From Vicinamibacterales bacterium (GTDB taxonomy: Bacteria; Acidobacteriota; Vicinamibacteria; Vicinamibacterales; JAMQPK01), in the NCBI GenBank assembly GCA_963825295.1, contig CAWGSZ010000001.1:293298-357297 (forward strand): a stretch of 64,000 nt of DNA. The letters run 5' to 3'. The position numbers were made by a program, and so were the translations under genes. The notes beneath the pieces are model-generated. The model searched no databases and was not told where the DNA came from. It was given only the letters and a program-made list of their open reading frames with translations. Below, piece after piece: positions 2,722-64,000 of the stretch. Numbering within the stretch: the first letter of the stretch is position 1; each line of letters opens with the position of its first letter.

Positions 2722-2783
2722 CATGGCAGATGGCAAAGGGCCGATGGCAGAACATGCCATTTGCGATCTGCCACTTGCCATGA
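2722..2783. repeat. inverted heptamer array (GGCANNT x4 / GCCANNT x4) between convergent genes
   Basis: GGCAGAT GGCAAAG GGCCGAT GGCAGAA CAT GCCATTT GCGATCT GCCACTT GCCATGA. The arms are mutually complementary. It lies between the stop at 2704 (+) and the stop at 2794 (-). Confidence 0.85.
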
Positions 2784-2793
2784 CGGCGAACCC

Positions 2794-5700
2794 TCAGAAT
2801 CCAGGGGTCAGAGAGAAGCCCCAAATCCAACCCCTTCCAGGTCTGTCGAACGGCCGCGCGAAGTCGATCTGCGCGACCGCGAAGCCCAGCAGGTTCGTGC
2901 GCAGCGTGATGCCGCCGCTCGTGACCGGCTCGCGCGATCCGTTGAAGAACGACGGCTTCTGACCCTTGTTCCAGGTGACGCCGCCATCCAGGAAGAACGC
3001 CACTTCGACGGGCACTGGCCCGTAGACGTTGCTGTCGACACCGCGGAACGGACGGAGCAGCGGGAAACGGAACTCGACGTTGCCGACGAGCATCCGGCTG
3101 CCGACGAGACGATTGTAGGTGCTGCACACCGTGGCCGATTCGCATTCGCCCGCCTCAAACGTGTTGACGTTGTACCCGCGCACGAACTCCGGATACCCCA
3201 TATAGAGCGGGATGAGACGCGAGTCCTCTGCACCCGCGCCGTACCGGCCGTAGTGGAGGCCCCGGACGGCGATGGTGTAGAAGCGGGCCGGCATGAAGTA
3301 GCGACGGTAATCGACGAGCGCCGACGTCATGTTCAAGTCGCCGAATGTCGGCGAGACCTCCAGACGCGAGCGGGCGCCGGCCACAGGGCTCGTGGCGCCG
3401 AAAATCGAGCGGTCGGTGACCAGTGCCGTGCTCACCGACGGCATGTTCAACGGATCGATGAGATCCGTGGACACTTTGTCATCGGAAATCACGCTGCCGG
3501 TGCGGAGTGAATATGCCGTGGTCTGGACACTTTGTTCGTACGACGTCCGCATGTAGCTGCCACCCAGCTCGAGTCGCGTGTTCTGACTGAACGGATACGA
3601 CACGACCCCGGTGACACCCTGGTTGATCTGCCGCTGAATGATGGTCTGCTCGACGATCGCAGACTGGCCGTTCACCACGCCCTGCGCGGTTGAGTACCCC
3701 CCGGCGAGGTACGGCGACTGCTCGACGCCGACGCCCCAGTTCCAGCGCTTCGACGTGTTCGTGTAGAACAAGGCGGCGCCGGTGTTCTTGAGCAGTTCCG
3801 AGGCGCCGGCGCCGTAGGTGTCGGCGTTCACCTGCGCGTAGAGGTTGTGATTGCCGAGCATGTCGCTGAACTGGAACGCGATGCCCCCGCCGATCGAGCC
3901 GCCGAAGCGATCGATGCCGGCCGAGATGTAGGGCTGGCTGACGGTGTCGAGCTTCAGTGTCGACTTGTAAGGCTGGACTTCGGCCGGAGTGGTGGAGAGG
4001 CCGGTCGTGGCATCGCTCAACAGCGTCGCGACCATCGACTCGCGCGGCGTTGGCGGCAGCGTCGCCGCCTGCTCGCGCGCGACGGTCGAGCTCACCGGAG
4101 TGCCGGTAAGCCCGTCGGCCTCGATCAAGTAGATGTGGTGGCTGCCTTCCTCGTAGGCGCTCAACGCCAGCGTCTTCGCGTCCATCGCCGACGAAATCGC
4201 CGGGCTCAGCGCCGTGATGCCGCTGACGCCGCTGTCGAGATTGGTGATCTGCGCGATGGCACCCGAGGACGTGTTGACCGTATACACGTTGCTGATGCCG
4301 TTCCGATCGGACACGAAGAACACGCGCCGGGTGTCGGAGCTCCATTGCGGGTTGATGCTCTTGCCCTGCTCGAAGGTCGACAGCGCTGTGATGGCGCCGG
4401 TCGCCACGTCGTAGAGCGCGAGCCGGTAGTCGCCCGCCTTCAGCAGCTTTGCGTCCGTGGTGAACCGGTCCGTGACGAACACGATGCGATCGCCGTCGGG
4501 CGACCACGAGGGCTGCAGATCGGCATACAGATCGCTGGTGACGCGCGTGGTCGTTCCCGAAGCCAGGTCGAGGATGAAGAGATCCGAGTCGCCGCCGACG
4601 GTCGCCGAGAACGCAATCGACTTGTGGTCGGGCGACCAGGTCGGGTTGAGGATTTCACCGACCTGCGGGACTTCGATTTCACGCACGACGTCGCCGTCCG
4701 AGATGTCGAGGATGGCCAGCACGGCCTTACCGGCATGCACGCCGCCAGCCACGAATTGCTTGCCGTTGGGGCTCCACGAACCGGCGGAGCCGATGAACTG
4801 CAGGCTCGTGAAGTGGGAGTCGAGCGCAGTGTCGACGAGCTTCCGCACGATGCGCCCGGTCTCGACATCTCCGAGATACAGATCGATCGAAAACAGATCG
4901 CGGGACGAGAAGAACACGATATGGCGGCCATCGGGGCTGATCGACGGCGACACGTTCGTGGCCATGCGCGCCTTGTCGGTATTGGTGAGCCAGCGCCCGA
5001 ACGTATGCGCGCGCGCCGTCGCCTGCATCACCGGCGAGTACCTGCTCGCGAATTGCCGCCTGCCAGTCGGCCGACAGCACCTTTTCGTCGACGAGCGTCG
5101 AATCCTGGATCGCCAGAATGGCGTCGCCGCTCCGCACCGCTGCCCGGAAGATCTGGCCGATGAGGTCATCGCCGTACTTGCCCCCGATGTAGGCCCAGAC
5201 CGCCTGTCCCCACCGGTAGGGGAAAAATTCTCCATTGTCCAGGCTTCGTATCTGCGGCAGCGTCTCCTTGCGCGTCGCATCGCGCAGCCACATGGCCGTG
5301 TGCGGATCGACCGGGCCGATCGACAGATACTCGGCCAGCCCTTCGACAAACCACAGCGGGAGACGCTCGATGCCCGCGCCCATGCCGCCACCAGCGGGCC
5401 GCTGGGCCGAGATGTCGTACTGGAAGGCGTGGACAAGCTCGTGGCCGAGCACGTGGTCCGTTTCCGCGAGCGTGCCGCCGAGCGGCAGCACGACGCGCCG
5501 CTTGAGGCCTTCGGTGACACCTCCCGTACCTTCGCCGAGCATGCCGCCGATCGTGTTGGTCTGTTCGAAATCAGGATGTGACGCATACAGCACGAGCGGT
5601 TGACGCGACCGAATCTCGTGCTCGAAGACTCTGGACAGGCGCGCGTACCACCGCTCGGCCATCTGACCGACGCGAGCCGCGTTCTCGCGCTCCTGGTCGT

Positions 5701-6983: not shown

Positions 6984-7055
6984 GAACAGAAGATCAGAAG
7001 ATCAGAAGGTCATTGGCCGAAAAGAGATCTGATCTCCTGAACTTCTGATCTTCTG
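6984..7055. repeat. inverted octamer-type array (GATCAGAA / TTCTGATC) in a divergent promoter region
   Basis: CAGAAGATCAGAAG (6987-7000) is the perfect reverse complement of CTTCTGATCTTCTG (7042-7055). The same 14-mer recurs at 51051-51064, with related copies at 60124-60160. Confidence 0.85.
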
Positions 7056-8847: not shown

Positions 8848-10247
8848 CGGGGTGGCTGCTCACGTGGCTCTGGCAGGGGGTCGTCCTGACGCTGAGCGTC
8901 GCCATCCTCTTGAAGTCGAGGCGCTTCAATGCCGCGACGCGCCACCTGGTGTGGTGGGCGGCCCTCGTCGCCCTCGCCTGGCTGGGCTACCAATCATCCC
9001 CGTACGGGGGTCAGACCCCCGTACCTGTACGGGGGTCTGACCCCAATGGCATGAGTTTCGCGCCGGAGCCGCTGCTCCAGGTTCACCAAATCTCCCCGTT
9101 CGTTGTTTCGATCCTTCTTGGCGTCTGGGCCGCGGTTGCCCTCGTAAAACTGGTTCGTCTCGTGCCGAGCCTGCACGCGGTGTATGCGTTACGCGATCTG
9201 TGCCGGCCGTTTCCCGCTGCCATCGAATCGCGGCTTCCGCTCTGGCTCGACGCGAACGGGCGCGGGCGACGCCGGGCAGAGTTGATGCTCTGCGACGAGC
9301 TCGCGGGCGCGACGGTGCTCGGCTTCCAGCGTCCGTGCATCGCCCTTCCAACCTCCCTCGTCCAGGCGTTGAGAGTCGAGGACCTGGATCAGATCCTTCT
9401 GCACGAGCAGGCACACGTCGAGCGGCGTGACGATTGGGCGCGATTGGCGCAGGCGCTGTTGCAGGCGGTGCTGTGGATTCACCCGGTGGTCCCGTTCATC
9501 GGCCGCGCCTTGAACCGCGAAAGCGAGATGGCGTGCGACGAATCGGTCATCGCGCGAACCGGCCTTCCAAAGGCATACGCCCGGTGCCTCCTGATCGCCG
9601 CCGAAGTGCGCGGGCGCATCAGGCTCGCGCCGGCTGTCGTGCCGGCATTGTTCGGAAGCCAGCACGATCTCGTGCGCCGCGTCGATCGTTTGCTCCATAC
9701 GAAGGAGAGCACACGGCGCGGCGTCTCGTGGCTCGTGGTCGTTGGTGCCGCGTGCGCGATTAGCGCGATCTCGGTACGGCTGAACACCCTGCCGCTGGTT
9801 GGCGAGTACGTGGACATGGTCCTGCCGCTGGTCGCCTCGCCAGCCGCGCGCCTCGTTGCCGGATTGAAACCCGTCGCACCGGCATCATCAGTCGCGATTC
9901 GGTCCGTCGAATCAATTCACGCGAGCGCCGCGCCGCCGCGTCTCGCCTCGGTGAGCCCAAACGAACCTCACGAACTCCACGAACCTAACGAACCTAACGA
10001 ACCCAACAAACCTTACGAACCCAACGAACCCGGCGGACCTTCAGAACTTCGAGGGGTCATGTCCTCCCGCGCCTTCGAAGGTGCGTACCATCAGAATCCG
10101 ACAGCCGTCGAGTCCGATGGATCGAGCGGCTGGCGGGCGGCGGCCACTCCCGGCGTGGAGATCGCCAGCGCGGCGCGCAAGACCAGCGTGGGCATTGCCG
10201 GCGCGGTCACCCGCGCGAGTGTGTCGCTGGCGAAGAGCTTCAGATGA
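8844..10247 (+). CDS. blaR1: BlaR1-like M56 family membrane metalloprotease / signal transducer
   Basis: ATG 8844 overlaps the blaI stop. N-terminal TM helices and the M56 motif HEQAHVERRD are present. No penicillin-binding sensor domain is recognisable. The C-terminal half is low-complexity and carries repeat insertions. Confidence 0.75.
   Translation: MTGWLLTWLWQGVVLTLSVAILLKSRRFNAATRHLVWWAALVALAWLGYQSSPYGGQTPVPVRGSDPNGMSFAPEPLLQVHQISPFVVSILLGVWAAVALVKLVRLVPSLHAVYALRDLCRPFPAAIESRLPLWLDANGRGRRRAELMLCDELAGATVLGFQRPCIALPTSLVQALRVEDLDQILLHEQAHVERRDDWARLAQALLQAVLWIHPVVPFIGRALNRESEMACDESVIARTGLPKAYARCLLIAAEVRGRIRLAPAVVPALFGSQHDLVRRVDRLLHTKESTRRGVSWLVVVGAACAISAISVRLNTLPLVGEYVDMVLPLVASPAARLVAGLKPVAPASSVAIRSVESIHASAAPPRLASVSPNEPHELHEPNEPNEPNKPYEPNEPGGPSELRGVMSSRAFEGAYHQNPTAVESDGSSGWRAAATPGVEIASAARKTSVGIAGAVTRASVSLAKSFR
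8998..9044. repeat. double palindromic element inside the blaR1 coding sequence
   Basis: GGGGTCAGACCCCCGTAC (9007-9024) and GTACGGGGGTCTGACCCC (9027-9044) form a perfect 18-bp inverted repeat with a 2-nt spacer. It encodes ..PYGGQTPVPVRGSDP.. Confidence 0.8.
9961..10032. repeat. 8 x 9-nt tandem array (ACGAACCNN) in frame in the blaR1 3' region
   Basis: ACGAACCTC ACGAACTCC ACGAACCTA ACGAACCTA ACGAACCCA ACAAACCTT ACGAACCCA ACGAACCCG. It encodes NEPHELHEPNEPNEPNKPYEPNEP. Confidence 0.85.
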
Positions 10248-12693: not shown

Positions 12694-12702
12694 ACCAGAA
12701 CT

Positions 12703-12807
12703 GGGGAGTAGGGACTAGGGATTGGGGATTAGGAATTGGGGATTGGATCAGGGTCGCAGGGACGCCTGATCCTAATCCCTAGTCCCCAATCCCTAATCCC
12801 TGATTCG
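12703..12807. repeat. inverted heptamer array, 7 units per arm (GGGATTN / NAATCCC)
   Basis: Left arm GGGGAGT AGGGACT AGGGATT GGGGATT AGGAATT GGGGATT GGATCAG. A 14-nt loop. Right arm CTGATCC TAATCCC TAGTCCC CAATCCC TAATCCC TGATTCG. It starts 10 nt after the stop at 12693. Confidence 0.9.
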
Positions 12808-18502: not shown

Positions 18503-19076
18503 TGCGTTAGGTGCGACGCTTGCGCGCGGGCCCGGGCCAGCGGTTCCACTCGGGATCCGGCCGCTCCTTTACGGAGTTCCGGAAGCGACTCGTCGCGACG
18601 AACGCCCGCTTTTCTAGATTCAGGGCGGAAGCGATCTCTTCGTCCTCACGTAGCCATTGTCGAGCGCCTCGCCCAGTTCGTCCTCAACCTCATTGAGCGA
18701 TGTTAGAGAGGTTGCAAGAAAGTTCGCAATGTCGCGGTGAGTTCTTCGGCCAAATCCCTCCGCAATCATCCTCCGCGCTGACGCCGCTGCATCCCTGAGC
18801 TGGTCGCGCAGGTCCCGGTCTTGACGGAATACGGGCTTTGAGCTGATTCGAAACACCTCCCTTTGAAGTGCACGAGCGAGCTTCCAGCACGTCAATTCCG
18901 AGAAATGTCGCACGCCCATGCGCGACCGAACTGCACGCGCGATGCCGCCCTCCTGTGGGAATTTTCAGGGAAGTCGTGGCCCTTGCGATATGGTGTGGCA
19001 CTTCTTGCTCAACCCGTTGGCATTTTCCACACGATCGCCCGCACCCAACGCACCCGTCGCACCCAACGCACCTATA
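18501..19076. mobile_element. hypothesised IVS-like cassette: inverted GGTGCG nonamer arms enclosing a four-helix-bundle gene
   Basis: Left arm AGTGCGTTAGGTGCGACG (18501-18518) matches the reverse complement of 19055-19072 (GGTGCGTTGGGTGCGACG) at 16 of 18 positions. The right arm has 4 nonamers (19041-19076). The interior gene has lower GC3. Confidence 0.4.
18620..18919 (-). CDS. four-helix-bundle protein (23S rRNA intervening-sequence protein / Avd-like family)
   Basis: Family pattern ..CWKLARAL..LRDQLRDAAASARRMIAEGFGRRTHRDIANFLATSLTSLNEVEDEL.. Confidence 0.75.
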   Translation of the reverse strand: MGVRHFSELTCWKLARALQREVFRISSKPVFRQDRDLRDQLRDAAASARRMIAEGFGRRTHRDIANFLATSLTSLNEVEDELGEALDNGYVRTKRSLPP

Positions 19077-22930: not shown

Positions 22931-25204
22931 ATGAAACGCTCGTTTTTATCTGCGTTGATGCTTGCGTTCGCCGCGTCTGCGTCGGCTCAGCCTGTTTCCG
23001 CGCTGGAGGGCCGGTTGCTGAACTCGCTGTCCGGCGATCCAATCGCGGGGGCAACGGTGGTGCTCGAGGAGCTCAAGACTGAAACGACGTCCGCCCCCGA
23101 TGGGTCGTTCCGGTTCGACCGGCTGGCGCCTGGCCGCTATCACGTATCGGTCCGCACGCAGGGATATTCGAACCGCCGGACCGAGGTCGTCGTATCGATC
23201 GAACGCGCCCAGGTCGACGTTCGCGTCGATCCCGATCTGCACTTCCAGGAGGTGACGTCGGTCAGCGCCGATACGCGCAGCCAGTTCGACGTCATGCAGC
23301 CGACCTCTGTGCTCGCCGGCCAGGAGCTGAGCAAGCAGCTCGAAAGCTCGCTCGGGGCGACGCTCGAGGCATTGCCCGGCGTTGCGGTCCGCAGCTTCGG
23401 ACCGGCGCCTTCACGGCCAGTCATCCGGGGTCTCGACGGCGACAGGGTGTTGATTCTGCAGGACGGCCAGCGCACCGGCGACCTGTCGAGCCAGTCGGGC
23501 GACCACGGCGTGAGCCTCAATCCGGCCGCCGCGGAGACCATCGAAGTGGTACGCGGCCCCGCGACGTTACTGTATGGCGCGAATGCGATCGGCGGCCTGG
23601 TGAACGTCATCACCAACGACATTCCGACGCGACCCGTTCAGCGCCCGTCGGGCCAGGTGACGTTCGACGCGGGAACCGCGGCCAACGAAGGCGGCGGCGC
23701 CGGACAGGTTCAGCTGGGCAACGGCAGGTTCGCCGTCAATGTGGGCGGCGGAGGCCGCCGGTCGGACGATTTCACGACGCCGGAAGGCGACGTGACGAAT
23801 TCGCAATCGCGAAACGGATTTGCCACGGTCGGCGCTGGATGGACCGGCGAGAAGGCGCAGGTTGGCGGCAGCTACGGATACGAGGACACCAAGTACGGGA
23901 TACCGGTCGTCGAGGGGGGCGTCATTCAACTCACGCCGCGACGGCACGCGCTGACCTTTCGCGCGGGCGCCGAGCGATTGACGGGCGCATTCGAGGCGTT
24001 TCGCGCCACGCTGGCCAATCGCCGCTACAAGCACGAAGAGCTCGAGGGCGAGAACGTCGGCACAGCATTCACGAACAACACGACCGAGTTCCAGACGATG
24101 GGCTCGCATCGCGCGGTCGGCCGCATGAAAGGGAGCATCGGTGCATGGGTGCTCGACCGCGCCTTCACGGCCACAGGCGCCGAGGCTTTGTCGCCGGCCG
24201 TCGATCAAGGCGGATTCGCCGCGTTCGCCTATGAAGAAGTCACCTGGCCGCACGTCACGCTTCAGTTCGCCGGCCGCGCCGATCACACGGGCTACACTCC
24301 TGCAGGAGAAACCAGGCGCGACTTCACCAACGGCTCGGTTTCCGGTGGCGTGGTGTTGCGGCCGGCGGCGGCCGACGATCGGCTGACGATTGCGGCCAGC
24401 TTCGCCTTTGCCGCACGCCCGCCCGCGCTCGAAGAGCTGTTCTTCTTCGGCCTGCATCCCGGCAACTTCGCCGTGGAAGTCGGCAATCCGAACCTGAAAT
24501 CCGAACGCGCATTGGGCGTCGATCTCTCGCTGCGCTGGCGCGCCGCGCGCGCGTCGGGCGAGGTGACCTACTTCCGGAATGACATCAACGACTACATTTT
24601 CCGGCGTCAGATGGACGCTGAGGAGTTCGAGGCGCGCCACGATGAGTTCGTCGAGCGTTTCGAGGGCCGCGAGCCTGCCGGACTGGACGAAGGCGCGGGT
24701 GAAGGTGAAGGCGCGGGTGAAGTTGAAGGCGGTGGAGGACCCGAACCTGAGATCGCTTACATCGAGTACATCGGCGCCGACTCGGTGCTGGACGGCATCG
24801 AGTCGCACGCGGACTTTCAGCTGACCTCCACGCTATCGGCCGAGCTCGGCCTCGATATCGTTCGCGGGTCGTTGAAAGCTGACGATTCGCCGCTGCCGCG
24901 CATCCCGCCGCTCAAGTTCCGAGGCGGACTGCGATATCAGCACAACGCGCTGCAGGTTGGCGGGCAAGTCATTGCCGCGGCCAGCCAGGATCGTCTGTCG
25001 GTGAACGAAACAGCGACCGACGGCTACACGCTGCTGAAGCTCTACGGTTCGTACTCATTCGGCGGCGCCGGCGCCGTGCAGACGATCACGGCCCGCCTGG
25101 ACAATGTCACGAACCAGCTGTATCGGAACCACCTATCCCTGATCAAGGACGTGGTGCCCGAGATGGGGCGCAATTTCAGAGTGGTCTACGCCGTCCGATT
25201 CTGA
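22931..25204 (+). CDS. TonB-dependent receptor with an N-terminal CarboxypepD_reg-like domain
   Basis: Signal peptide, GRLLNSLSGDPIAGATVV..APDGSFRFDRLAPGRYHV, plug region PVIRGLDGDRVLILQDG, and a C-terminus ..RVVYAVRF. Confidence 0.9.
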   Translation: MKRSFLSALMLAFAASASAQPVSALEGRLLNSLSGDPIAGATVVLEELKTETTSAPDGSFRFDRLAPGRYHVSVRTQGYSNRRTEVVVSIERAQVDVRVDPDLHFQEVTSVSADTRSQFDVMQPTSVLAGQELSKQLESSLGATLEALPGVAVRSFGPAPSRPVIRGLDGDRVLILQDGQRTGDLSSQSGDHGVSLNPAAAETIEVVRGPATLLYGANAIGGLVNVITNDIPTRPVQRPSGQVTFDAGTAANEGGGAGQVQLGNGRFAVNVGGGGRRSDDFTTPEGDVTNSQSRNGFATVGAGWTGEKAQVGGSYGYEDTKYGIPVVEGGVIQLTPRRHALTFRAGAERLTGAFEAFRATLANRRYKHEELEGENVGTAFTNNTTEFQTMGSHRAVGRMKGSIGAWVLDRAFTATGAEALSPAVDQGGFAAFAYEEVTWPHVTLQFAGRADHTGYTPAGETRRDFTNGSVSGGVVLRPAAADDRLTIAASFAFAARPPALEELFFFGLHPGNFAVEVGNPNLKSERALGVDLSLRWRAARASGEVTYFRNDINDYIFRRQMDAEEFEARHDEFVERFEGREPAGLDEGAGEGEGAGEVEGGGGPEPEIAYIEYIGADSVLDGIESHADFQLTSTLSAELGLDIVRGSLKADDSPLPRIPPLKFRGGLRYQHNALQVGGQVIAAASQDRLSVNETATDGYTLLKLYGSYSFGGAGAVQTITARLDNVTNQLYRNHLSLIKDVVPEMGRNFRVVYAVRF

Positions 25205-25212
25205 CGCGTCGG

Positions 25213-25296
25213 TTGGTCGATGGGCAAAGGGCGGCGGGCGATGGTCTCTTGTGGATCGACCATGGCCCATCGACCCTTGACCATCGCCCATCGACT
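25213..25296. repeat. inverted heptamer array (GGCGATG / CCATCGC type) between convergent genes
   Basis: GTCGATGGGC (25216-25225) is the reverse complement of GCCCATCGAC (25286-25295). There are internal 7-nt units on both arms. The array overlaps the stop of the minus-strand gene at 25295. Confidence 0.8.
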
Positions 25297-40000: not shown

Positions 40001-41254
40001 ATGATCGTCCTCTCCGGCGCCGATCTCGTTCTACCAGGCGGTGTGCAATCGCGTGCCACGCTGGTCATTGATGGGGAACGGATAGCCGATGTGAGCAGCG
40101 CGACGGCCCCGCCGGCGTCTTCCACGCCGCTCGACGGACACATCATCGTGCCCGGGTTCATCGATGTGCACGTCCATGGCGTCGACGGTATTGACGCGCT
40201 CGATGGGTCCGATGCCACGGCCGCCATTGCCAGCCGGCTGCCGAAGTTTGGCGTCACGGCGTTCTGCCCGACCACGGTCGCATGCGGACCTGCCCGCCTG
40301 CGCGACGTGCTCGAGAGCGTGGCCAGACTGCGTGGCGCAATCGATGGTGCGGCTCGCGTGCTGCCCGCCCATCTGGAAAGCAACTTCATCAATCCCGACT
40401 ACAGAGGCGCGCAGCCGGTTGAGTGTCTGCGCGCACCTCTGGGTGCGTTGGGTGCGAGGGGTGCGTTGGGTGCGAGGGGTGCGTTAGGTGCGTCGGGTGC
40501 GACAGGTGCGATGGAGGATTTCGATGCCGCCGACATTGTTGCCGAGATCGATCGTGCCGGTAGCGCCGTCGGCATTGTAACGCTGGCGCCCGAGCTCGAC
40601 GGCGCGCTCGACCTCATCCGGCATCTCGTGTCGAAGGGACGGCGGGTTTCGCTCGGGCACTCGGGCGCTGACATGGAGCAGGGACGCGCCGCAATCGAGG
40701 CCGGTGCGACTCAGGCGACGCACCTCTTCAACAGGATGCCGCCGTTCGGCCATCGCCAGCCGGGGCTGGTGGGCGCGATCCTGTCGAGCGAACGTGTGGC
40801 CGCCGAAGTGATTTGCGATGGTGTGCACGTGCACCGCGAGGTCGTGCGCATGGCGGTCTCCACCAAGGGAACGGCCAGGATGATGGCGATCACCGACGGG
40901 GTCGCCGTCGCCGGCATGCCGGACGGCTCGACGGCACTGCTTGGTGGACGGCAGATTCGCGTCGACAAGTCCGCCGCGTATCTCGAAGACGGCACGCTCG
41001 CGGGAAGCGTGACCACGATGGACCGCGTATTCAGATTTCTCGTCCGCGACGTCGGGCTTTCACTCGTCGACGCGGCGCATCTGTGCTCCACCACGCCTGC
41101 CGCGGAACTGAACCTCACGGATCTCGGCGCCATCACCAAAGGTGCCATCGCCGATCTCGTCGTCCTCGATCGCAACTTTCATGTCAGGCAGACCTACGTC
41201 GCCGGCCGGCTGGTCTACGACGGCGAAAAAGGCTCCCGGAGCCTTTTTGAGTAA
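40001..41254 (+). CDS. nagA: N-acetylglucosamine-6-phosphate deacetylase with an in-frame repeat insertion
   Basis: ATG at 40001. GFIDVHVHG, HLESNFINP, LGHSGA, THLFNRMP, ITDG. It contains the 72-nt GGTGCG array. Confidence 0.85.
   Translation: MIVLSGADLVLPGGVQSRATLVIDGERIADVSSATAPPASSTPLDGHIIVPGFIDVHVHGVDGIDALDGSDATAAIASRLPKFGVTAFCPTTVACGPARLRDVLESVARLRGAIDGAARVLPAHLESNFINPDYRGAQPVECLRAPLGALGARGALGARGALGASGATGAMEDFDAADIVAEIDRAGSAVGIVTLAPELDGALDLIRHLVSKGRRVSLGHSGADMEQGRAAIEAGATQATHLFNRMPPFGHRQPGLVGAILSSERVAAEVICDGVHVHREVVRMAVSTKGTARMMAITDGVAVAGMPDGSTALLGGRQIRVDKSAAYLEDGTLAGSVTTMDRVFRFLVRDVGLSLVDAAHLCSTTPAAELNLTDLGAITKGAIADLVVLDRNFHVRQTYVAGRLVYDGEKGSRSLFE
40441..40512. repeat. 8 x 9-nt tandem array (GGGTGCGNN) in frame inside nagA
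   Basis: GGGTGCGTT GGGTGCGAG GGGTGCGTT GGGTGCGAG GGGTGCGTT AGGTGCGTC GGGTGCGAC AGGTGCGAT. It encodes GALGARGALGARGALGASGATGAM. Confidence 0.9.
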
Positions 41255-46112: not shown

Positions 46113-47851
46113 TGGTGGGCTTCGTACGTAGGCCGGGTCCTGCAGGACCCGGCGATCGGCGGGTCGACAGTGCAAGATCCGCTGCATGGCGGGTCTACAA
46201 AGCAAGACCCGCCCTACTCGTGGTGGCTCTCGCAGCGGTGGCGTCCGGCATCCTCTACGGCCAGGCGCGCAGCGCACCCGACTGGACGACGAGCGGGTTC
46301 GATGCGCAGCGATCGTCGTGGGTGCGCGCGGACCCGTACATTTCGATTCCGAATCTGACGAAGTTCCAGTTCATCTGGAAACTGAAGGTCGACAACGAGT
46401 CGCGGTTCGGGAACTCGCTGACCGCTCCCGTCGCGCTCGGCAACCTGATGACGTTTCGCGGATTCAAGTCGCTCGTCTTCGTCGGCGGCAGTTCCAACAA
46501 CGTCTACGCCATCGACTACGACTTCGGCACCATTTTCTGGCGGACCCATCACAACTACGCGGCCGGCGCCCGCGAGTTTTCCGGATCGCCCGCGTGTCCG
46601 GGCGGCATGACGATGCCGCTGACGCGCGCGACGCCGCTGGTTCCGACGGCGCAGCTGGCTTTCTTCGGGTTCGCGCGCCCGCCTCGTCCGGCCAAGGGGG
46701 ACATCGGCGAGCCTGGAAAAGGCGCACCTCAACTGGCCGAGATCGCGGCCCGCCTGGCGGCTCGCGGCAACAGCGGACGCGGAGCTGATACGCCGGCGCC
46801 CGCTCCACCGGCGCGCGGCGCCGCGCCTAACGCACCTCTCGCACCCAACGCATCCACCTCCGCGCCTACTTCGCAGACCGCTACGGCGGACAAGCCCGTC
46901 GCACCCAGTTCGCGGGTCGTGCGTGCAACCAACGCCGTTTTCAGCGTGGCCGCCGACGGCTTGTTGCGGGGACTCATTCCCGATACGGGCGATCTCGCGC
47001 TGGCACCGGCACGGTTTCTTCCGGCGAACGCGACAGCGACCGGGCTCATCTGGACCGAGGGCTTTGTTTATGCCGCCACGACAAATACATGCGGCGGCAC
47101 GTCGGAAGCCGTGTGGGCCATGGATGTTGCGTCGGACGCCAGGCCGGTGGTTTCGTGGGATACCGGTGGCGCGCCAGTGGCGGGAATCGCCGTCGGTCCC
47201 GACGGTACTGTGTACGCCGCCACCGGAAGCGGCACGTCTCAATACGCCAGCTCGATCGTGGCATTGGACGGCGCGACGCTGACCGTGCGCGACTGGGTCA
47301 CGCGCGAGTCCGGGTTTACGTCGGCGCCGGTCGTGTTCACCGAAGGGCAGAAGTCGTACGTGACGGCCACGTCGGACGGCCGGCTCCATGTCTTCGATGC
47401 CGCCTCGCTGGGCGGCGCCACTCACCGCGCGCCGCTGGCCATGACGGCCGATGCCGGGCTGCGCTTCGCCCCTGACGGTCTCGCGACGTGGCGCGACGAG
47501 TCGGGCACGCGCTGGATTCTTGCCGCCCTCGGCGATGCGATCGGCGGCTTCAAGGTCGTCGACAAGGGCGGCACACCCTCGATCGAGCGCGCGTGGACAT
47601 CGCGGACGATGGCATCTCCGCGCGCGCCGATCATCGTCAACGGCGTCGTGTTCGCGCTCGCCGGCGGCAACGCGAATGCGAACGCGACGCTCTACGCGCT
47701 CGATCCTTCGACAGGCAAGGATCTCTGGACCAGCGGAAGTACGATTACCGGGGTTGCCAGCGCCGGGCTGTCTGCCGGAACCGGCCAGGTGTACGTCGTG
47801 ACGTCGGACAACACGGTATGGTCGTTCGGCATTCCGCTCGCCATAAATTAG
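46109..47851 (+). CDS. PQQ-like beta-propeller repeat protein with a low-complexity insert
   Basis: ATG 46109 overlaps the upstream stop (ATGA). Blades such as NNVYAIDYDFGTIFW and ATLYALDPSTGKDLW. There is an Ala/Pro-rich insert including a CGCACC nonamer array. Confidence 0.7.
   Translation: MMVGFVRRPGPAGPGDRRVDSARSAAWRVYKARPALLVVALAAVASGILYGQARSAPDWTTSGFDAQRSSWVRADPYISIPNLTKFQFIWKLKVDNESRFGNSLTAPVALGNLMTFRGFKSLVFVGGSSNNVYAIDYDFGTIFWRTHHNYAAGAREFSGSPACPGGMTMPLTRATPLVPTAQLAFFGFARPPRPAKGDIGEPGKGAPQLAEIAARLAARGNSGRGADTPAPAPPARGAAPNAPLAPNASTSAPTSQTATADKPVAPSSRVVRATNAVFSVAADGLLRGLIPDTGDLALAPARFLPANATATGLIWTEGFVYAATTNTCGGTSEAVWAMDVASDARPVVSWDTGGAPVAGIAVGPDGTVYAATGSGTSQYASSIVALDGATLTVRDWVTRESGFTSAPVVFTEGQKSYVTATSDGRLHVFDAASLGGATHRAPLAMTADAGLRFAPDGLATWRDESGTRWILAALGDAIGGFKVVDKGGTPSIERAWTSRTMASPRAPIIVNGVVFALAGGNANANATLYALDPSTGKDLWTSGSTITGVASAGLSAGTGQVYVVTSDNTVWSFGIPLAIN
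46822..46857. repeat. 4 x 9-nt array (CGCACCNNN, complement orientation) in frame in a propeller gene
   Basis: CGCGCCTAA CGCACCTCT CGCACCCAA CGCATCCAC. It encodes APNAPLAPNAST. Confidence 0.75.
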
Positions 47852-47931
47852 GTGCGAGGGGTGCGAGGGGTGCGAGGGGTGCGTCAGGTGCGTCAGGTGC
47901 GAGGGGTGCGATGGGTGCGCTAGGTGCGGCC
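47851..47931. repeat. 9 x 9-nt tandem array (GGTGCGNNN) filling an intergenic gap
   Basis: GGTGCGAGG x3, GGTGCGTCA x2, GGTGCGAGG, GGTGCGATG, GGTGCGCTA, GGTGCGGCC. It starts at the last base of the TAG stop (47849-47851) and ends 3 nt before ATG 47935. Confidence 0.9.
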
Positions 47932-55148: not shown

Positions 55149-55532
55149 TCACAGCGCCGCCGCGAAGAACGCCAGGCAGGCCCAGCCGATGAGGAACCCC
55201 AGGCCGCCGATGGGCGTAATCGCCCCGAACATGCCGGTGCCCGTCAGCGCGAGCGCGTAGAGGCTTCCCGAGAAAATGAGCGTGCCGGCGATGAACGACC
55301 AGCCGGCGATCATGAGCAGCCGCAGCGGTCCGAAGTGCCCGATGGCCGCTGCGGTGATGAGCAGCGCGAAGACGTGATACATCTGGTACCGCACGCCGAT
55401 TTCGAAGACCGCCAGCATCTCTGGCGACAGCCGGTTACGCAATCCGTGCGCGCCGAACGCTCCGAACGCCACGCCGAGAAATCCAAGAATCGCCCCGATG
55501 AGTAGAAAACCCTTATGCATGTCTTTCGTCAT
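55149..55532 (-). CDS. DUF423 (YgdD/TMEM256-like) membrane protein
   Basis: GAFGAHGL.., VRYQMYHVFALL, SGSLYALALTG. Confidence 0.75.
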   Translation of the reverse strand: MTKDMHKGFLLIGAILGFLGVAFGAFGAHGLRNRLSPEMLAVFEIGVRYQMYHVFALLITAAAIGHFGPLRLLMIAGWSFIAGTLIFSGSLYALALTGTGMFGAITPIGGLGFLIGWACLAFFAAAL

Positions 55533-55620
55533 GGCAAATGGCACATGGCAAATAGCAAAAATTGGCATGGATGATGGCGTGTTCTGCCATGTGCCATTTG
55601 CCATCTGCCATCTGCCATGA
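55531..55620. repeat. inverted heptamer array (ATGGCAN x4 / GCCATNT x5)
   Basis: ATGGCAA ATGGCAC ATGGCAA ATAGCAA, a loop, then GCCATGT GCCATTT GCCATCT GCCATCT GCCATGA. It uses the same unit family as 2722-2783. Confidence 0.9.
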
Positions 55621-60110: not shown

Positions 60111-60178
60111 GAAAGATAAGAAACAGAAGATCACGAAGATCAGAAGCTTTTGATCTTCTGATCTCTCTGTTGTTTTTC
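60111..60178. terminator. hairpin-forming GATCAGAAG-type array followed by a T-run (possible bidirectional terminator)
   Basis: ..CAGAAGATCACGAAGATCAGAAG|CTTTTGATCTTCTGATCTCT.. then GTTGTTTTTCG. It lies between convergent stops at 60091 (+) and 60199 (-). Confidence 0.5.
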
Positions 60179-60198
60179 GTGGCTGTGTTGTTCGTTGG

Positions 60199-60916
60199 CT
60201 ATTTGTACGTCTGGAGATCTTTCCGATTGCAGCCAGGTGGCAACGCTACGGTGGGCGGCTTGTCGCCGGCGTAGCACTTCGGAATGACGTACATCGGTTT
60301 TGCGGTCGCTCCCAGGGCGGGCACGACGATGAACGCCGGTCTGGTGGAGACGAGCTGCATGTTGCCGCGATAGCGCAGAATTTCGCCCGGGTCGATCACC
60401 ACGCTGAACGTGGACGCTTCATAACCGGTTCCGCGCAGTTCGATGCGGTGCGCCCCTGTCGGGATGATCATGGGCCTGCCTCGCAGGCCGAAATCTTCCG
60501 CGAGGCCCTCGTAAAAGCCGTCGATGAAGACCTCGACGCCATCCGGAATCGTTTCCAGGACGAGACCACCGTGCTGGACGGGCAGCGGCGGGTTCGGGTA
60601 GTAGCTCACGTAGTCGCCCGGACGCCAGTAGGGATAGTACGAGTAGGTACGGCCCGTATGGTCCCGGAATGTAGATCGGCGGCCTGACGATGGGTGGAGA
60701 GGCCGGATACCGGCTGCCGGCCGCATATCGATCAGATCCATCCGGCGATTGATACAGGTCCGGGCCCGCCGGATGCATCCCCGCGAACGGGTCCGGCACG
60801 GTGAGCGATACCGGCGGTGCCGGCGGGGGTGGAACCGGAGGCTGCTGTGCCCGAAGCGGCGCCACGGTGGCGACGAGCAGAATGGGCGCCAGCAGCACGC
60901 GGAAACCAGCGGTCAT
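60199..60916 (-). pseudogene. PEGA-domain protein with a Pro-rich N-terminal region, frame broken near 60646
   Basis: Signal peptide MTAGFRVLLAPILLVATVAPLRAQ..PIYIPGPYGPY|YSYYPYWRPGDY..LVLETIPDGVEVFIDGFYEG. One extra base separates ORFs 60419..60916 and 60199..60741. Confidence 0.6.
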
Positions 60917-61884: not shown

Positions 61885-62276
61885 GGTACCGTTATTATTT
61901 TTCGTAATTACTGAAATCAGAACAATTCAATTGTCTAATTCTCAGGTGGTTGATACATTTTGATACGTGCCGACAAGCAACTGCGTCCCGTTCGATCGCA
62001 CGCGCGGTCGCGCGACGCGGGAGAAATGCGTGTCCGTGGAGCAGATGACCGAGATGTTCGACCATCTCAGTCCGGCCCAGTACGCGTTCCTGAGCGGGGT
62101 GCTTGCGATCCTCGCGGAACATGGCGAAGAAGCCCTCACCAAGTCCTGCGAAATGGTGCTCGAACGATTCGGAAGCCGTCACGCGGGTTGAGATCATGGA
62201 GAATCTTTCGGTATCCGCCAGACGTCTGCCCGCATCCCAGGCCACACGCTGGACCTCTGTCAGAATTGTGCCGCCG

Positions 62277-62834
62277 ATGAATCTCGTATTCTTCGGGCCC
62301 CCTGGCGCCGGCAAGGGCACGCAGGCCGACCGGTTTGCCGCCAACCATCGCATCCCGAAGATTTCCACCGGCGACATGCTTCGTCAGGCCGTGGCCGACG
62401 GCTCTCGCATCGGGACACTCGTGCGCGACACGCTGCAGTCCGGCGCGCTGGTGACCGACGAGCTCATCATTTCGCTGGTGGCCGAGCGGCTCGAACAGCC
62501 GGATACGGCCGGCGGGTTCGTGCTCGACGGGTTTCCGCGCACCATTCCCCAGGCGGCGGCGCTCGACGCGATGCTCGCCGAGCGGGGCGGCGTGAACGTC
62601 GTCGCGCTCGTGGTCCATGCCGACGAAGTCGTCCGGCGGCTCGCCGTGCGCGGGCGTGAGGACGACGGCGCGTGGGTGATCAAGGAAAGGCTCCGGGTGT
62701 ACTCCCGCGAAACCGAGCCCGTGCTCGAGTTCTATCGCCGGCGCGGCGCGGTAACGATCCTCGACGGCAACCGTCCGCTCGACGAAGTGACCGCTGCGAT
62801 TGAAGCAGCGGTTACGAGAGGGCTGAAGGCTTAG
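62277..62834 (+). CDS. adk: adenylate kinase (short-lid type)
   Basis: P-loop FFGPPGAGKGTQ, ISTGDMLR, GFVLDGFPRT. ATG at 62277. The stop codon lies inside the heptamer array. Confidence 0.85.
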   Translation: MNLVFFGPPGAGKGTQADRFAANHRIPKISTGDMLRQAVADGSRIGTLVRDTLQSGALVTDELIISLVAERLEQPDTAGGFVLDGFPRTIPQAAALDAMLAERGGVNVVALVVHADEVVRRLAVRGREDDGAWVIKERLRVYSRETEPVLEFYRRRGAVTILDGNRPLDEVTAAIEAAVTRGLKA

Positions 62835-63427
62835 GGCTCAGGGCTTAGGGCTCAGAGCTTAGGGTTTTGCACCTCGAGATGGCGACGCCTGCGCCGTCTT
62901 GATCGCCGCGACGATCATGGCCCGTAGCTCGCCGGCCTCCTTCAGTTCCCAATCGACTTCCTCTGCTTTGACCTTGCCGAGCTTTACCGCGACGCGCAGC
63001 CAGTAGCGGCTCTCGCGCGATTCCTTTCGAGAGATCGCCATCTTTGCGATGAAGTCGGGCTTGGTCTGACCATCCTGCGCTTCCTCTGCGTTGGCCCCGA
63101 CCGAAGCACCGCACCGCATCAACTCCGACGCGATATGACGCGCAGCAGGTCCGCGATCCCACAGTCTTTCTGATAGTTGCATCACTCGACAACCGAACTC
63201 GAACGCCCGCGTGCAGATAGTCGACTCGCTCATAGCGTTCGTGTGTCTTCAAATACGCCGCCATTTCTTGACTGCATAGATTCCGGAGGTTTTTCTTCCG
63301 GTTGGCAGTCTTTGCCACGTCAAGTCGACACCGACGTTGGAGAATGTTTGAAGCTGGATCACGATTAACCCTCAACCCTTAAGCCCTCAGCCCTCAGCCC
63401 TCAGCCCTTAGCCCTTAGCCCTTTCAG
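62821..63427. mobile_element. hypothesised IVS-like cassette: inverted GGCTNAG heptamer arms enclosing a four-helix-bundle gene
   Basis: Left arm 62821-62869 has 7 units of GGCTNAG. Right arm 63365-63427 has 9 units of CTNAGCC (the reverse complement). A single antisense ORF lies between them. The right arm abuts a truncated gene. Confidence 0.4.
62859..63233 (-). CDS. four-helix-bundle protein (23S rRNA intervening-sequence protein / Avd-like family)
   Basis: ..FEFGCRVMQLSERL..ELMRCGASVGANAEEAQDGQTKPDFIAKMAISRKESRESRYWLRV.. The TAA stop lies in the last units of the left array. Confidence 0.75.
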   Translation of the reverse strand: MSESTICTRAFEFGCRVMQLSERLWDRGPAARHIASELMRCGASVGANAEEAQDGQTKPDFIAKMAISRKESRESRYWLRVAVKLGKVKAEEVDWELKEAGELRAMIVAAIKTAQASPSRGAKP

Positions 63428-63428
63428 A

Positions 63429-63677
63429 GGAGAACCGCATACCGGCAGTCAGGTGTGCACGTATGCATCGGCGCAGTGGGCTGCATCGATTCGCGACTAC
63501 ATGGCGCTCGAGACCGTCACCGGTGAAGGCGGGTGGATGGATCAGGTGCTGACGCTCGATGGTCCCTACATCAAGGATGGCTTCATACAAGTGACGAGCA
63601 AGCCCGGACTGGGCATCGTTCTCAATCCGGACGTCGTCCGCGCCCATCTCGTGCAGGGGGAGAGTTGGTGGGGCTGA
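63429..63677 (+). pseudogene. 3' fragment of an enolase-superfamily (mandelate racemase/muconate lactonizing) gene
   Basis: The open frame starts right at the array edge: ..EPHTGSQVCTYASAQWAASIRDYMALETV..GPYIKDGFIQVTSKPGLGIVLNPDVV.. This matches only the C-terminal ~80 aa of such enzymes. No 5' part is present upstream. Confidence 0.55.
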
Positions 63678-63679
63678 AT

Positions 63680-63751
63680 CAATTGCGGATTGTTGATTGA
63701 CGATTGGCGATTGTATTGGCAATTGCCAATCGTCAATCGCCAATCGAAAAT
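63680..63751. repeat. inverted heptamer array (GATTGNC / GNCAATC) around an ATTGGCAATTGCCAAT palindrome
   Basis: CAATTGC GGATTGT TGATTGA CGATTGG CGATTGT, the centre, then TGCCAAT CGTCAAT CGCCAAT CGAAAAT. It lies between convergent stops at 63677 (+) and 63759 (-). Confidence 0.9.
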
Positions 63752-63758
63752 CCGAAAG

Positions 63759-64000
63759 TCAGACAGTTCCGCGCCGCCCGACCGCCATCCTGTAGATAAA
63801 CAAGACGATCACCGCGCCGAGGATCGACATGAAGGTCCCCGCGCCGTCGTTGGGACCGTACATTCCGAGCGCGCGGCCGACGAATCCCCCCAGAAGTGCA
63901 CCGACGATGCCGAGCAGCATGGTCACGATGAAGCCACCGGGATCGCGGCCGGGCATCAAGAGCTTGGCGACGACGCCGACGATGAGACCAAAAACAATCC
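63759..64000 (-). CDS. GlsB/YeaQ/YmgE (transglycosylase-associated) family membrane protein, 5' end beyond the window
   Basis: ..IVFGLIVGVVAKLLMPGRDPGGFIVTMLLGIVGALLGGFVG.. The frame stays open to position 64000. Confidence 0.75.
   Translation of the reverse strand, partial: IVFGLIVGVVAKLLMPGRDPGGFIVTMLLGIVGALLGGFVGRALGMYGPNDGAGTFMSILGAVIVLFIYRMAVGRRGTV

Follow-up and report, generated by a model that had tools for sequence, protein, structure and literature searches.

A four-helix-bundle gene between inverted heptamer arrays downstream of adk: a probable copy of a hairpin cassette related to rRNA intervening sequences

Proteins of the PF05635 family are abundant, sometimes with many copies per genome, and we know of no function for them outside diversity-generating retroelements (DGRs). 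We are likewise aware of no accepted explanation for the over-representation of heptamer repeats in bacteria. As far as we know, the intervening sequences (IVSs) of ribosomal RNA (rRNA) genes have been called remnants of mobile elements for 30 years, and the corresponding element outside rRNA has not been found. Here we analyse a 64-kb stretch (65% GC) of a Vicinamibacterales genome (contig CAWGSZ010000001.1, positions 293,298 to 357,297), hereafter the window, in which a PF05635 four-helix-bundle (4HB) gene lies between two inverted heptamer arrays directly downstream of the adenylate kinase gene adk. This locus and its relatives tie together PF05635 proteins, heptamer repeats and rRNA IVSs, and we consider it rather probable that the locus represents a conserved and insertion-prone hairpin cassette of the IVS type, located outside rRNA, at an ordinary gene junction.

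Among the closest described elements is the IVS of 23S rRNA. In Coxiella, it forms a terminal stem of 28 bp, and on the 5' side of this stem, immediately ahead of the S23p open reading frame (ORF), two to three GACAGAT heptamers stand in tandem. Strains differ in the number of heptamers, and the first repeat is where RNase III cuts (PMC4990558). A protein family and a heptamer-built stem are thus common to the rRNA element and to the cassettes presented below. PF05635 ORFs are also found in 16S and 23S insertions of candidate-phyla-radiation bacteria. As for heptamer repeats themselves, published studies proposed G-quadruplex or regulatory roles and made no link to 4HB genes or IVSs (PMC4692102, PMC4679880).

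The cassette at the adk junction

The left arm of the cassette is a purine- and G-rich array of GGCTNAG heptamers (62819..62864; 6.6 copies according to Tandem Repeats Finder, period 7, AGGGCTT). The right arm is its reverse complement, a pyrimidine-rich array of CTNAGCC heptamers (63365..63423; 8.3 copies, period 7, TTAGCCC), and the longest inverted pair returned by a repeat search consists of 32-nt arms that are 88% complementary and spaced by 526 nt. An earlier note, made from the sequence of the window, had proposed that these arms can pair with each other. This is borne out by RNA folding of positions 62805-63440 on each strand, compared with 20 shuffles: in minimum-energy as well as centroid structures, both arrays pair into a single long stem on either strand, with one mismatch per 7 positions, which corresponds to the central N of CTNAG. 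Relative to the shuffles, 0 of 20 of which folded as well, the z-score amounts to -4.1 for the gene-sense strand and to -5.85 for the plus strand. The GGCTNAG unit occurs only once in the window.

The arms are tightly fitted to the neighbouring genes. As the earlier note had read it, the left arm begins within the final codons of adk (62283..62834, plus strand) and provides its TAG stop codon, which lies in unit 2, while the 3' end of the 4HB ORF reaches into its last units. On the other side, the right arm stops at the Shine-Dalgarno remnant of an enolase-superfamily pseudogene (63427..63677, plus strand). The proposed location outside rRNA also holds, since the cassette is flanked by adk and this pseudogene and Rfam detected no rRNA in 62000-64000 (E up to 1), the only matches being spurious miRNA/snoRNA ones on hairpins. 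A scan for sigma70 promoters and intrinsic terminators found none in the cassette and no terminator sites in 62200-64000, and no U-tract follows any of the window's hairpins. A repeat search revealed no template/variable repeat pair near the cassette, the neighbours of which are LysR, adk, the enolase remnant and a Transgly_assoc gene (63759-63959).

The gene between the arms (62859..63233, minus strand, 124 aa) belongs to the four-helix-bundle family known first from 23S IVSs, a relative of which is the DGR accessory protein Avd, as had been suggested from its sequence pattern. It matches PF05635 (E = 2.8e-16, 60.1 bits, curated cut-off 33.8) and TIGR02436, 'four helix bundle protein' (E = 1.1e-20, 73.8 bits, cut-off 24), the sole family matched, with no match to an HUH/Y1 (IS200-like) transposase. 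An AlphaFold model built with 29 homologues has four helices (mean predicted local distance difference test, pLDDT, 92.6). Its best structural matches are 2RLD (template modelling score, TM, 0.80-0.91) and 2GSC (TM 0.65-0.75), each an entry with five chains, and more distant matches are Avd (4DWL) and the DGR ribonucleoprotein 8UB7 (TM ~0.62-0.77). The ORF uses more A/T-ending codons than its neighbours, in agreement with the earlier note: its G+C content at third codon positions (GC3) is 0.69, versus 0.84 for adk and a window median of 0.81 based on rough GC3-based gene calls. The ratio of nonsynonymous to synonymous substitution rates (dN/dS) is 0.13-0.14 between the window ORF and its homologues and 0.02-0.14 over eight pairs of 4HB genes; the 4HB protein is under purifying selection and functional. 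A look-up of the exact sequence of the window ORF returned no record.

Comparison with related genomes shows that the junction is polymorphic, as the earlier note had anticipated. Eight close relatives were recovered from a metagenome scan with the adk protein. One of them (L054; 90% nucleotide identity over 3.1 kb) carries the same cassette at the same place after adk, with arms of 10.6 and 11.6 copies versus 6.6 and 8.3 in the window, and with a 172-nt deletion in its 4HB ORF (corresponding to window positions 63025-63196). In two others (L056 and L060), adk is followed by the same enolase-family gene, and an unrelated empty 8-mer hairpin takes the place of the cassette. Three close relatives exhibit, after adk, a lone AGCTTCC array (L061), a 9-mer GGTGCGNNG array beginning at the adk stop codon (L059), or nothing (L058). 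In the last two, adk converges directly on the Transgly_assoc gene, with a small two-unit hairpin (L055) or an imperfect hairpin (L057) at the junction. In every occupied junction, the adk stop codon is the start of an array or part of its content.

The same comparison clarifies the state of the enolase-family gene, which the earlier note had described as abutting the right arm and 5'-truncated. The gene does adjoin the arm, but it was not truncated by the cassette. In L054, the gene starts right behind the right arm (AAGGAGG...ATG), its 5' end is intact and it matches the MR_MLE_N domain, whereas the window remnant shows a deletion of ~1 kb relative to L054. The window keeps the Shine-Dalgarno sequence and a mutated start codon (ATA), followed by the C-terminal 74 codons, so that the gene was internally deleted rather than cut by the cassette. 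A conserved stretch of ~50 nt (GTCGGTCCCTGTGTTAGCCTAG...CACAGGAGG) precedes the enolase-family gene in cassette-less relatives (L056 1441-1495, L060 1590-1640, L058 1340-1372) and is absent from the window and from L054; it may be a leader or a regulatory element.

Distribution, insertion sites and inheritance

Close homologues of the window ORF number in the hundreds in soil metagenomes. To survey loci, one genome per species was scanned with an alignment of 29 homologues, which returned 53 loci in about ten phyla: Acidobacteriota (mostly Vicinamibacterales), Verrucomicrobiota, Planctomycetota, Desulfobacterota and Spirochaetes, as well as two candidate-phyla-radiation lineages, Bacteroidota, Chloroflexota and Gammaproteobacteria. 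A further scan of the surveyed loci with hidden Markov models and jackhmmer added only a second gene in L014 and the L054 remnant. Nearly all loci show a period-7 array upstream of the 4HB gene and a reverse-complement array downstream. The units vary from locus to locus (AGGGCTG, AGGGCAG, ATGGCAG, AGGGATT, AGGGGTA, GAATGAT, AATTATG, AGTTGAA and others) and track the base composition of the host. Arm complementarity was scored for each gene by local alignment of its 350-nt upstream and downstream flanks: the median score is 42, versus 20 in 293 shifted control pairs from the same loci, and 46 of the 54 loci exceed the 95th percentile of the controls. The cassette class that the earlier note had suspected from two copies in a single window thus extends to homologous loci in about ten phyla.

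When arms were matched with their own partner and with arms of other loci, the own partner was the best match at no more than 15 of the 54 loci, unit families being common to several loci. A terminal TGTCA...TGACA motif was considered as a general feature and rejected, as it was found in the ATGGCWG family only. The arrays have a marked polarity: of 46 cassettes, 44 have the purine-rich array first and 42 show G in excess of C, and the polarity is equal on either strand. The number of reading frames closed by stop codons is higher in the 5' arm (1.57) than in the 3' arm (1.00; p = 0.003). A frame-independent stop signal was nevertheless not retained as the cause of the purine-first polarity, the trend being modest and many units containing no stop codon. 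Gene-less hairpins are several times commoner than cassettes in the same genomes, and one locus (L140) holds three AGGGCTG elements within 20 kb, namely a cassette, an empty hairpin and a solo array.

Some cassettes are located inside operons or even genes. The genes accB and accC normally form one operon, and in Xanthomonas XCC0516, the 4HB protein of PDB entry 2GSC, is encoded between them (L134, L135, L137 and L138, 2423-2875). Its upstream flank reads GGGAATC GGGAGTG GAGAATC GGGAATC and its downstream flank CCCATTC CCCATTC TCGACTC CCTATTC, then CC-ATG, so that the ATG start codon of accC is formed in the last unit of the downstream array. GGGAATC has ~186 sites in X. campestris, 70-75 of which are arranged as convergent inverted pairs, and these repeats were reported without a link to XCC0516 (Rehm et al. 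2015, PMC4692102). At eight loci in Verrucomicrobiota, Planctomycetota and Desulfobacterota (L027, L030-L032, L034, L035, L038 and L043), 4HB cassettes and empty hairpins occupy the 5' end of the type I restriction gene hsdR, which was identified by its HSDR_N, SWI2_SNF2 and T1RH-like_C domains. There, a stub beginning with 'MKFTEA...' stops in the purine-rich array, and the pyrimidine-rich array gives an in-frame ATG for the remainder of HsdR. In L035, three hairpins in succession separate the stub, a RhuM gene, the 4HB gene and hsdR. We also noted that the hsdR insertions have a copy of a duplicated KFTEA/KFSEA coding motif on each side, and that further hairpins at these loci separate RhuM genes from their neighbours.

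All-against-all comparison of flanks places the Vicinamibacterales loci in syntenic groups of two to six genomes, indicating that most cassettes are long-term residents at their sites. In one such group, L014 has the unit AGGGCAG, and L017 and L022-L025 have ATGGCAG; the difference runs through the whole of both arms, which therefore evolve in concert. Gene orientation relative to the flanks differs between genomes in three syntenic groups. The cassette is inverted in situ in L022 relative to L025, with flanks and ORF ~96% identical and breakpoints inside the arrays, and L021 and L041 show the same kind of inversion. In the L022/L025 pair (~2870-3030 in each), hardly any alignment is possible over the 130-nt leader and the first ~10 codons, and the L025 leader resembles that of the more distant L017; this difference could result from segment replacement or from hypervariability. 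The cassette closest to that of the window at the DNA level (L008, 79% nucleotide identity) is located in an unrelated gene context. ORF decay was observed in the L054 copy and in the window's second copy.

A second polymorphic junction was found in a divergent start region of ~40 nt, which holds a 4HB cassette in L014, an empty hairpin in L022 and nothing in L025 and L017. The L022 hairpin (4528-4611), located between the divergent start codons, is the one empty hairpin observed with reversed polarity, with a T-rich CAGTCTT array first and an A-rich AAACTGA array second.

The leader between the right arm and the ATG of the window gene (63234..63364, minus strand) has an equivalent with conserved motifs in other Vicinamibacterales cassettes. 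Among 30 aligned Vicinamibacterales leaders, conservation is slight apart from a TGGC-N7-TTG(A/C) motif, which is at a constant position in ~25 of them, 15 nt from the ATG in the window (TGGCGGCGTATTTGA, TGGC-N7-TTGA, 63249..63263, minus strand) and roughly 15-20 nt from it in homologues. Upstream of it, two GCAG-AAW-CTGC palindromes are conserved, the second of which is matched in the window by TGGCAGTCTTTGCCA (63293..63307). Sigma54 promoters follow a GG-N10-GC (-24/-12) pattern, consensus TGGCAC-N5-TTGC, with an upstream activator site. The spacing of the leader motif is exactly that of -24/-12 elements and both TGGC and TTG are conserved, position -12 being mostly GA, not GC. The pattern is not rare, with 7 matches in the window versus 3.6 expected, and a lone match is not significant. 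On the strength of the aligned leaders, the motif is probably a sigma54-type promoter with activator sites, the palindrome at 63293..63307 may be an activator or operator site, and transcription from the motif would yield a nearly leaderless 4HB mRNA. Because the motif lies inside the arms, such an mRNA would carry the 3' arm only, and both arms would be present only in read-through transcripts. In other phyla, the 4HB start codon lies within the array itself, so that expression of those copies must come from upstream.

The remainder of the window is rich in related structures. A second cassette (18503..19072, minus strand), which the earlier note had listed as another copy, does contain a real PF05635 gene (18620-18919, minus strand; E = 4.7e-17). 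Its ORF is frameshifted near position 18625, with the other frame running to ~18511, its arms consist of 9-mers (GTGCGNNGG) and not heptamers, and its fold is weakly better than shuffles (z = -1.9). The left arm is short and located at the TAG of a kinase gene (GTGCGTTAGGTGCGACGC), and the right arm (19040-19072, 3.7 copies of CGCACCCAA) ends beside the start of the next gene. In tblastn searches of both window 4HB proteins against the window, neither detected the other and no further copy was found.

Empty array hairpins, for which the earlier note had advised scanning, do exist. In addition to its two cassettes, the window contains seven gene-less hairpins of inverted tandem 7- or 8-mers with short loops, all with the purine-rich array first and all folding better than shuffles (z = -3.9 to -7.3). 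Four of them are located between convergent gene ends: ATGGCAG heptamers at 2723..2790 (z = -6.0), GGTCGAT/ATCGACC heptamers at 25200..25295 (z = -4.3), AAGATCAG octamers at 60113..60169 (z = -3.9) and, between the enolase remnant and the Transgly_assoc gene, GATTGNC heptamers at 63688..63752 (z = -7.2). The others are composed of TGGGGAT/AGGGATT heptamers directly after a stop codon (12702..12801, z = -7.3), ATGGCAA heptamers (55531..55618, z = -6.9) and CAGAAGAT octamers between divergent gene starts (6987..7055, z = -5.2). According to a rough GC3-based gene map, most empty hairpins begin a few bases from a stop codon and one lies between divergent starts. Several units recur: ATGGCAR is present twice in the window and also flanks the 4HB genes of L017 and L022-L025, CAGAAGAT is present twice in the window and also in the relative L056, and the 9-mer GGTGCGNNG occupies five window sites, the second cassette among them.

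Three ORFs of the window contain in-frame 9-mer arrays (40440-40511, 46829-46856 and 9960-10030): GGGTGCGNN encodes (GALGAR)n in the Amidohydro_1 domain of a NagA-like protein, AACGCACCC is located within a PQQ/beta-propeller-like protein, and AACGAACCT encodes (EPN)n in the C-terminal portion of a BlaR1/M56 protein. ORFs seem to tolerate arrays of period 9, whereas those of period 7 and period 8 are intergenic. An unpaired GGTGCGAGG 9-mer array (47851-47928, 8.8 copies) spans the interval from the stop codon of one gene, which ends at 47851, to the beginning of the gene that follows, and the junction sequence at 47851 (AAT TAG GTGCG) is the same as in L059 after adk. Finally, a 15-nt direct repeat TGTTGTTCGTTGGCT (2.6 copies, 60171-60210) lies directly behind the octamer hairpin at 60113-60169.

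Mechanism and rival explanations

Several kinds of behaviour are directly observed. Arrays begin at a neighbour's stop codon, or provide a stop or start codon; they change rapidly in copy number, their arms evolve in concert despite unit drift, and their interior flips; and gain, loss or replacement occurs at the same junction among related genomes. If the locus is, as we think rather probable, a copy of an insertion-prone cassette, the two arms would be the terminal inverted repeats that define the element, and slippage together with arm-to-arm recombination would homogenise them. In a transcript running through the whole element, the arms would fold into a long double-stranded stem, to be cut by RNase III as in the rRNA version. 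Removal of the stem by RNase III would explain why such elements are tolerated in rRNA, in the accBC operon and at the 5' end of hsdR. The 4HB protein would be a nucleic-acid-binding factor, most likely binding the arrays or array RNA, as suggested by its kinship to the Avd pentamer, which binds RNA in DGRs, and by the five chains of 2RLD and 2GSC.

Several observations weigh against this reading. A transposase, recombinase or reverse transcriptase was found neither inside nor beside the cassette, and the adk junction shows no visible target-site duplication. Most Vicinamibacterales cassettes are stably inherited at syntenic loci, no near-identical cassette copies were seen inside one genome, and we infer mobility from distribution only. 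Among arm mismatches on the gene-sense strand, 57 are G.U and 67 are A.C (p = 0.42); as G.U is not in excess over A.C, there is no sign of pairing selected in the sense RNA, and the mismatch data fit homogenisation at the DNA level as well as selection at the RNA level. Protein distance and unit distance are significantly correlated over all phyla (r = 0.31), a correlation confounded by base composition, and within Acidobacteriota protein distance does not predict unit distance (r = 0.06, not significant), which weakens the idea that the protein specifies the unit. In addition, if the internal promoter-like motif is real, the 4HB gene's own mRNA lacks the 5' arm. Lastly, insulation of neighbouring reading frames accounts for the polarity of the arrays just in part.

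A different view of the same structures is that the hairpins are host features of gene ends (mRNA stabilisers or terminator-like structures built by slippage), and that the 4HB gene is a separate selfish gene inserting into their loops, much as IS1397 targets the loops of repetitive extragenic palindromic (REP) sequences. We regard this as unlikely. It would account for the excess of empty hairpins over cassettes (7 to 2 in the window), for the fact that most empty hairpins abut stop codons, for the unrelated empty hairpin that relatives carry exactly at the position of the window cassette, and for the lack of co-divergence between unit and protein within Acidobacteriota. However, no hairpin has the U-tract of a terminator, one lies between divergent starts and another in the divergent start region of ~40 nt mentioned above, and cassettes are present inside accBC and hsdR, where a terminator would be harmful. 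Moreover, the cassette and the empty hairpin at the adk junction are built from different units, the 4HB protein has no known integrase chemistry, and the unit family AGGGCTR recurs with related proteins at different loci (the window, L008, L140 and L001), suggesting that the arms travel with the gene.

The in-situ inversions (L022/L025, with flanks ~96% identical, and L021/L041) and the sharp difference in leader between the two orientations raise the question of a phase-variable invertible element, in which the arrays would be recombination sites and flipping would switch the 4HB gene or its neighbours. This we judge improbable: there is no invertase gene nearby, long variable arrays can be recombined by RecA, inversion was seen between genomes and not within a population, and the promoter-like motif and the ORF are both inside the invertible segment, so that a flip would not switch the 4HB gene. 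It is more improbable still that the arrays are written by a templated polymerase, namely a reverse transcriptase acting in trans with an Avd-like 4HB protein in a telomerase- or DGR-like manner. Such writing would fit the structural kinship to Avd (4DWL and 8UB7, TM ~0.62-0.77) and the presence of the same unit at scattered sites of one genome (the 9-mers of the window, L140 and Xanthomonas, PMC4692102), but neither a reverse transcriptase nor a template/variable repeat pair lies beside any inspected cassette, and slippage is a simpler cause of copy-number change. As for chance pairing of low-complexity repeats or an assembly artefact, the probability is close to nil. Short-read contigs do often end in such arrays (as in L059), yet the same architecture is found in dozens of independent assemblies, including contigs of hundreds of kb to Mb and finished Xanthomonas genomes. 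These assemblies refute the explanation, as do the complementarity controls, which are far below the observed values, and the cassette folds, which beat their shuffles.

Beyond the hairpin cassette itself, a wider proposal can be put forward, which we regard as tentative and rather doubtful: PF05635 4HB proteins could be dedicated trans-acting partners of pan-bacterial, transposase-free elements made of inverted heptamer arrays. The protein, probably a pentamer, would bind or propagate the arrays, a scheme that would unify 23S IVSs, the bacterial excess of heptamers, the short tandemly repeated repetitive (STRR) sequences, the GGGAATC repeats of Xanthomonas and the large families of 4HB paralogues. 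Tractable cases are provided by XCC0516, the crystal structure of which is known, in the Xanthomonas accBC operon, and by the cassettes at the 5' end of hsdR. Array hairpins also matter in practical terms, as they break short-read assemblies, provide stop and start codons for their neighbours, flip, and mark turnover hot spots at gene junctions.

Comparison with described systems

Like the 23S IVSs of Leptospira, Coxiella and others, the cassettes have an S23p/PF05635 ORF in the loop of a long inverted-repeat terminal stem. Unlike them, the focal copy lies between protein genes and not in helix 9, 25 or 45 of rRNA, the arms are long arrays of 6-17 units, and the gene, which evolves under purifying selection, comes with a promoter-like motif of its own; excision by RNase III is known for the rRNA versions only. 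The relation to Avd of DGRs is one of fold: both are four-helix bundles, and the five chains of 2RLD and 2GSC recall the Avd pentamer, whereas sequence similarity between Avd and the 4HB protein is undetectable (foldseek E ~0.1) and neither a reverse transcriptase nor template/variable repeats are found near the cassette.

Heptamer simple sequence repeats, such as cyanobacterial STRR sequences, GGGAATC of Xanthomonas (PMC4692102) and TAACTGA of Beggiatoaceae (PMC4679880), are likewise intergenic tandem heptamers, often in convergent inverted pairs, and the length of their arrays varies between close relatives, as in arrays of the window type. Miniature inverted-repeat transposable elements and Rickettsia palindromic elements are also small hairpin-forming insertions devoid of a transposase, sometimes located in coding regions. 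The cassettes differ from them in having no fixed consensus, in showing no target-site duplication and, for some, in carrying a conserved gene.

The organisation also resembles that of REP sequences and REPINs with their REP-associated tyrosine transposases (RAYTs), or REPtrons, in which a gene lies between inverted short repeats and gene-less hairpin copies are intergenic, mostly at gene ends. Dispersal of the flanking repeat is REPtron-like for GGGAATC in Xanthomonas, AGGGCTG in L140 and the 9-mers of the window. However, RAYT is an HUH/Y1 transposase and the 4HB protein has no known catalytic motif, the cassette arms are tandem arrays of variable unit and copy number instead of one fixed palindrome, and a single cassette-bearing genome holds many unit families.

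Full-text searches of a literature collection from which subscription journals are mostly missing found neither a description of the cassette outside rRNA nor a paper connecting inverted short-period arrays to 4HB genes. rRNA IVSs with a 4HB ORF, heptamer repeats, and inverted GGGAATC pairs in Xanthomonas are each known separately. What is apparently undescribed is an IVS-type element at ordinary gene junctions, accompanied by empty hairpins in a relation that resembles that of REP sequences to RAYT, and this without a transposase.

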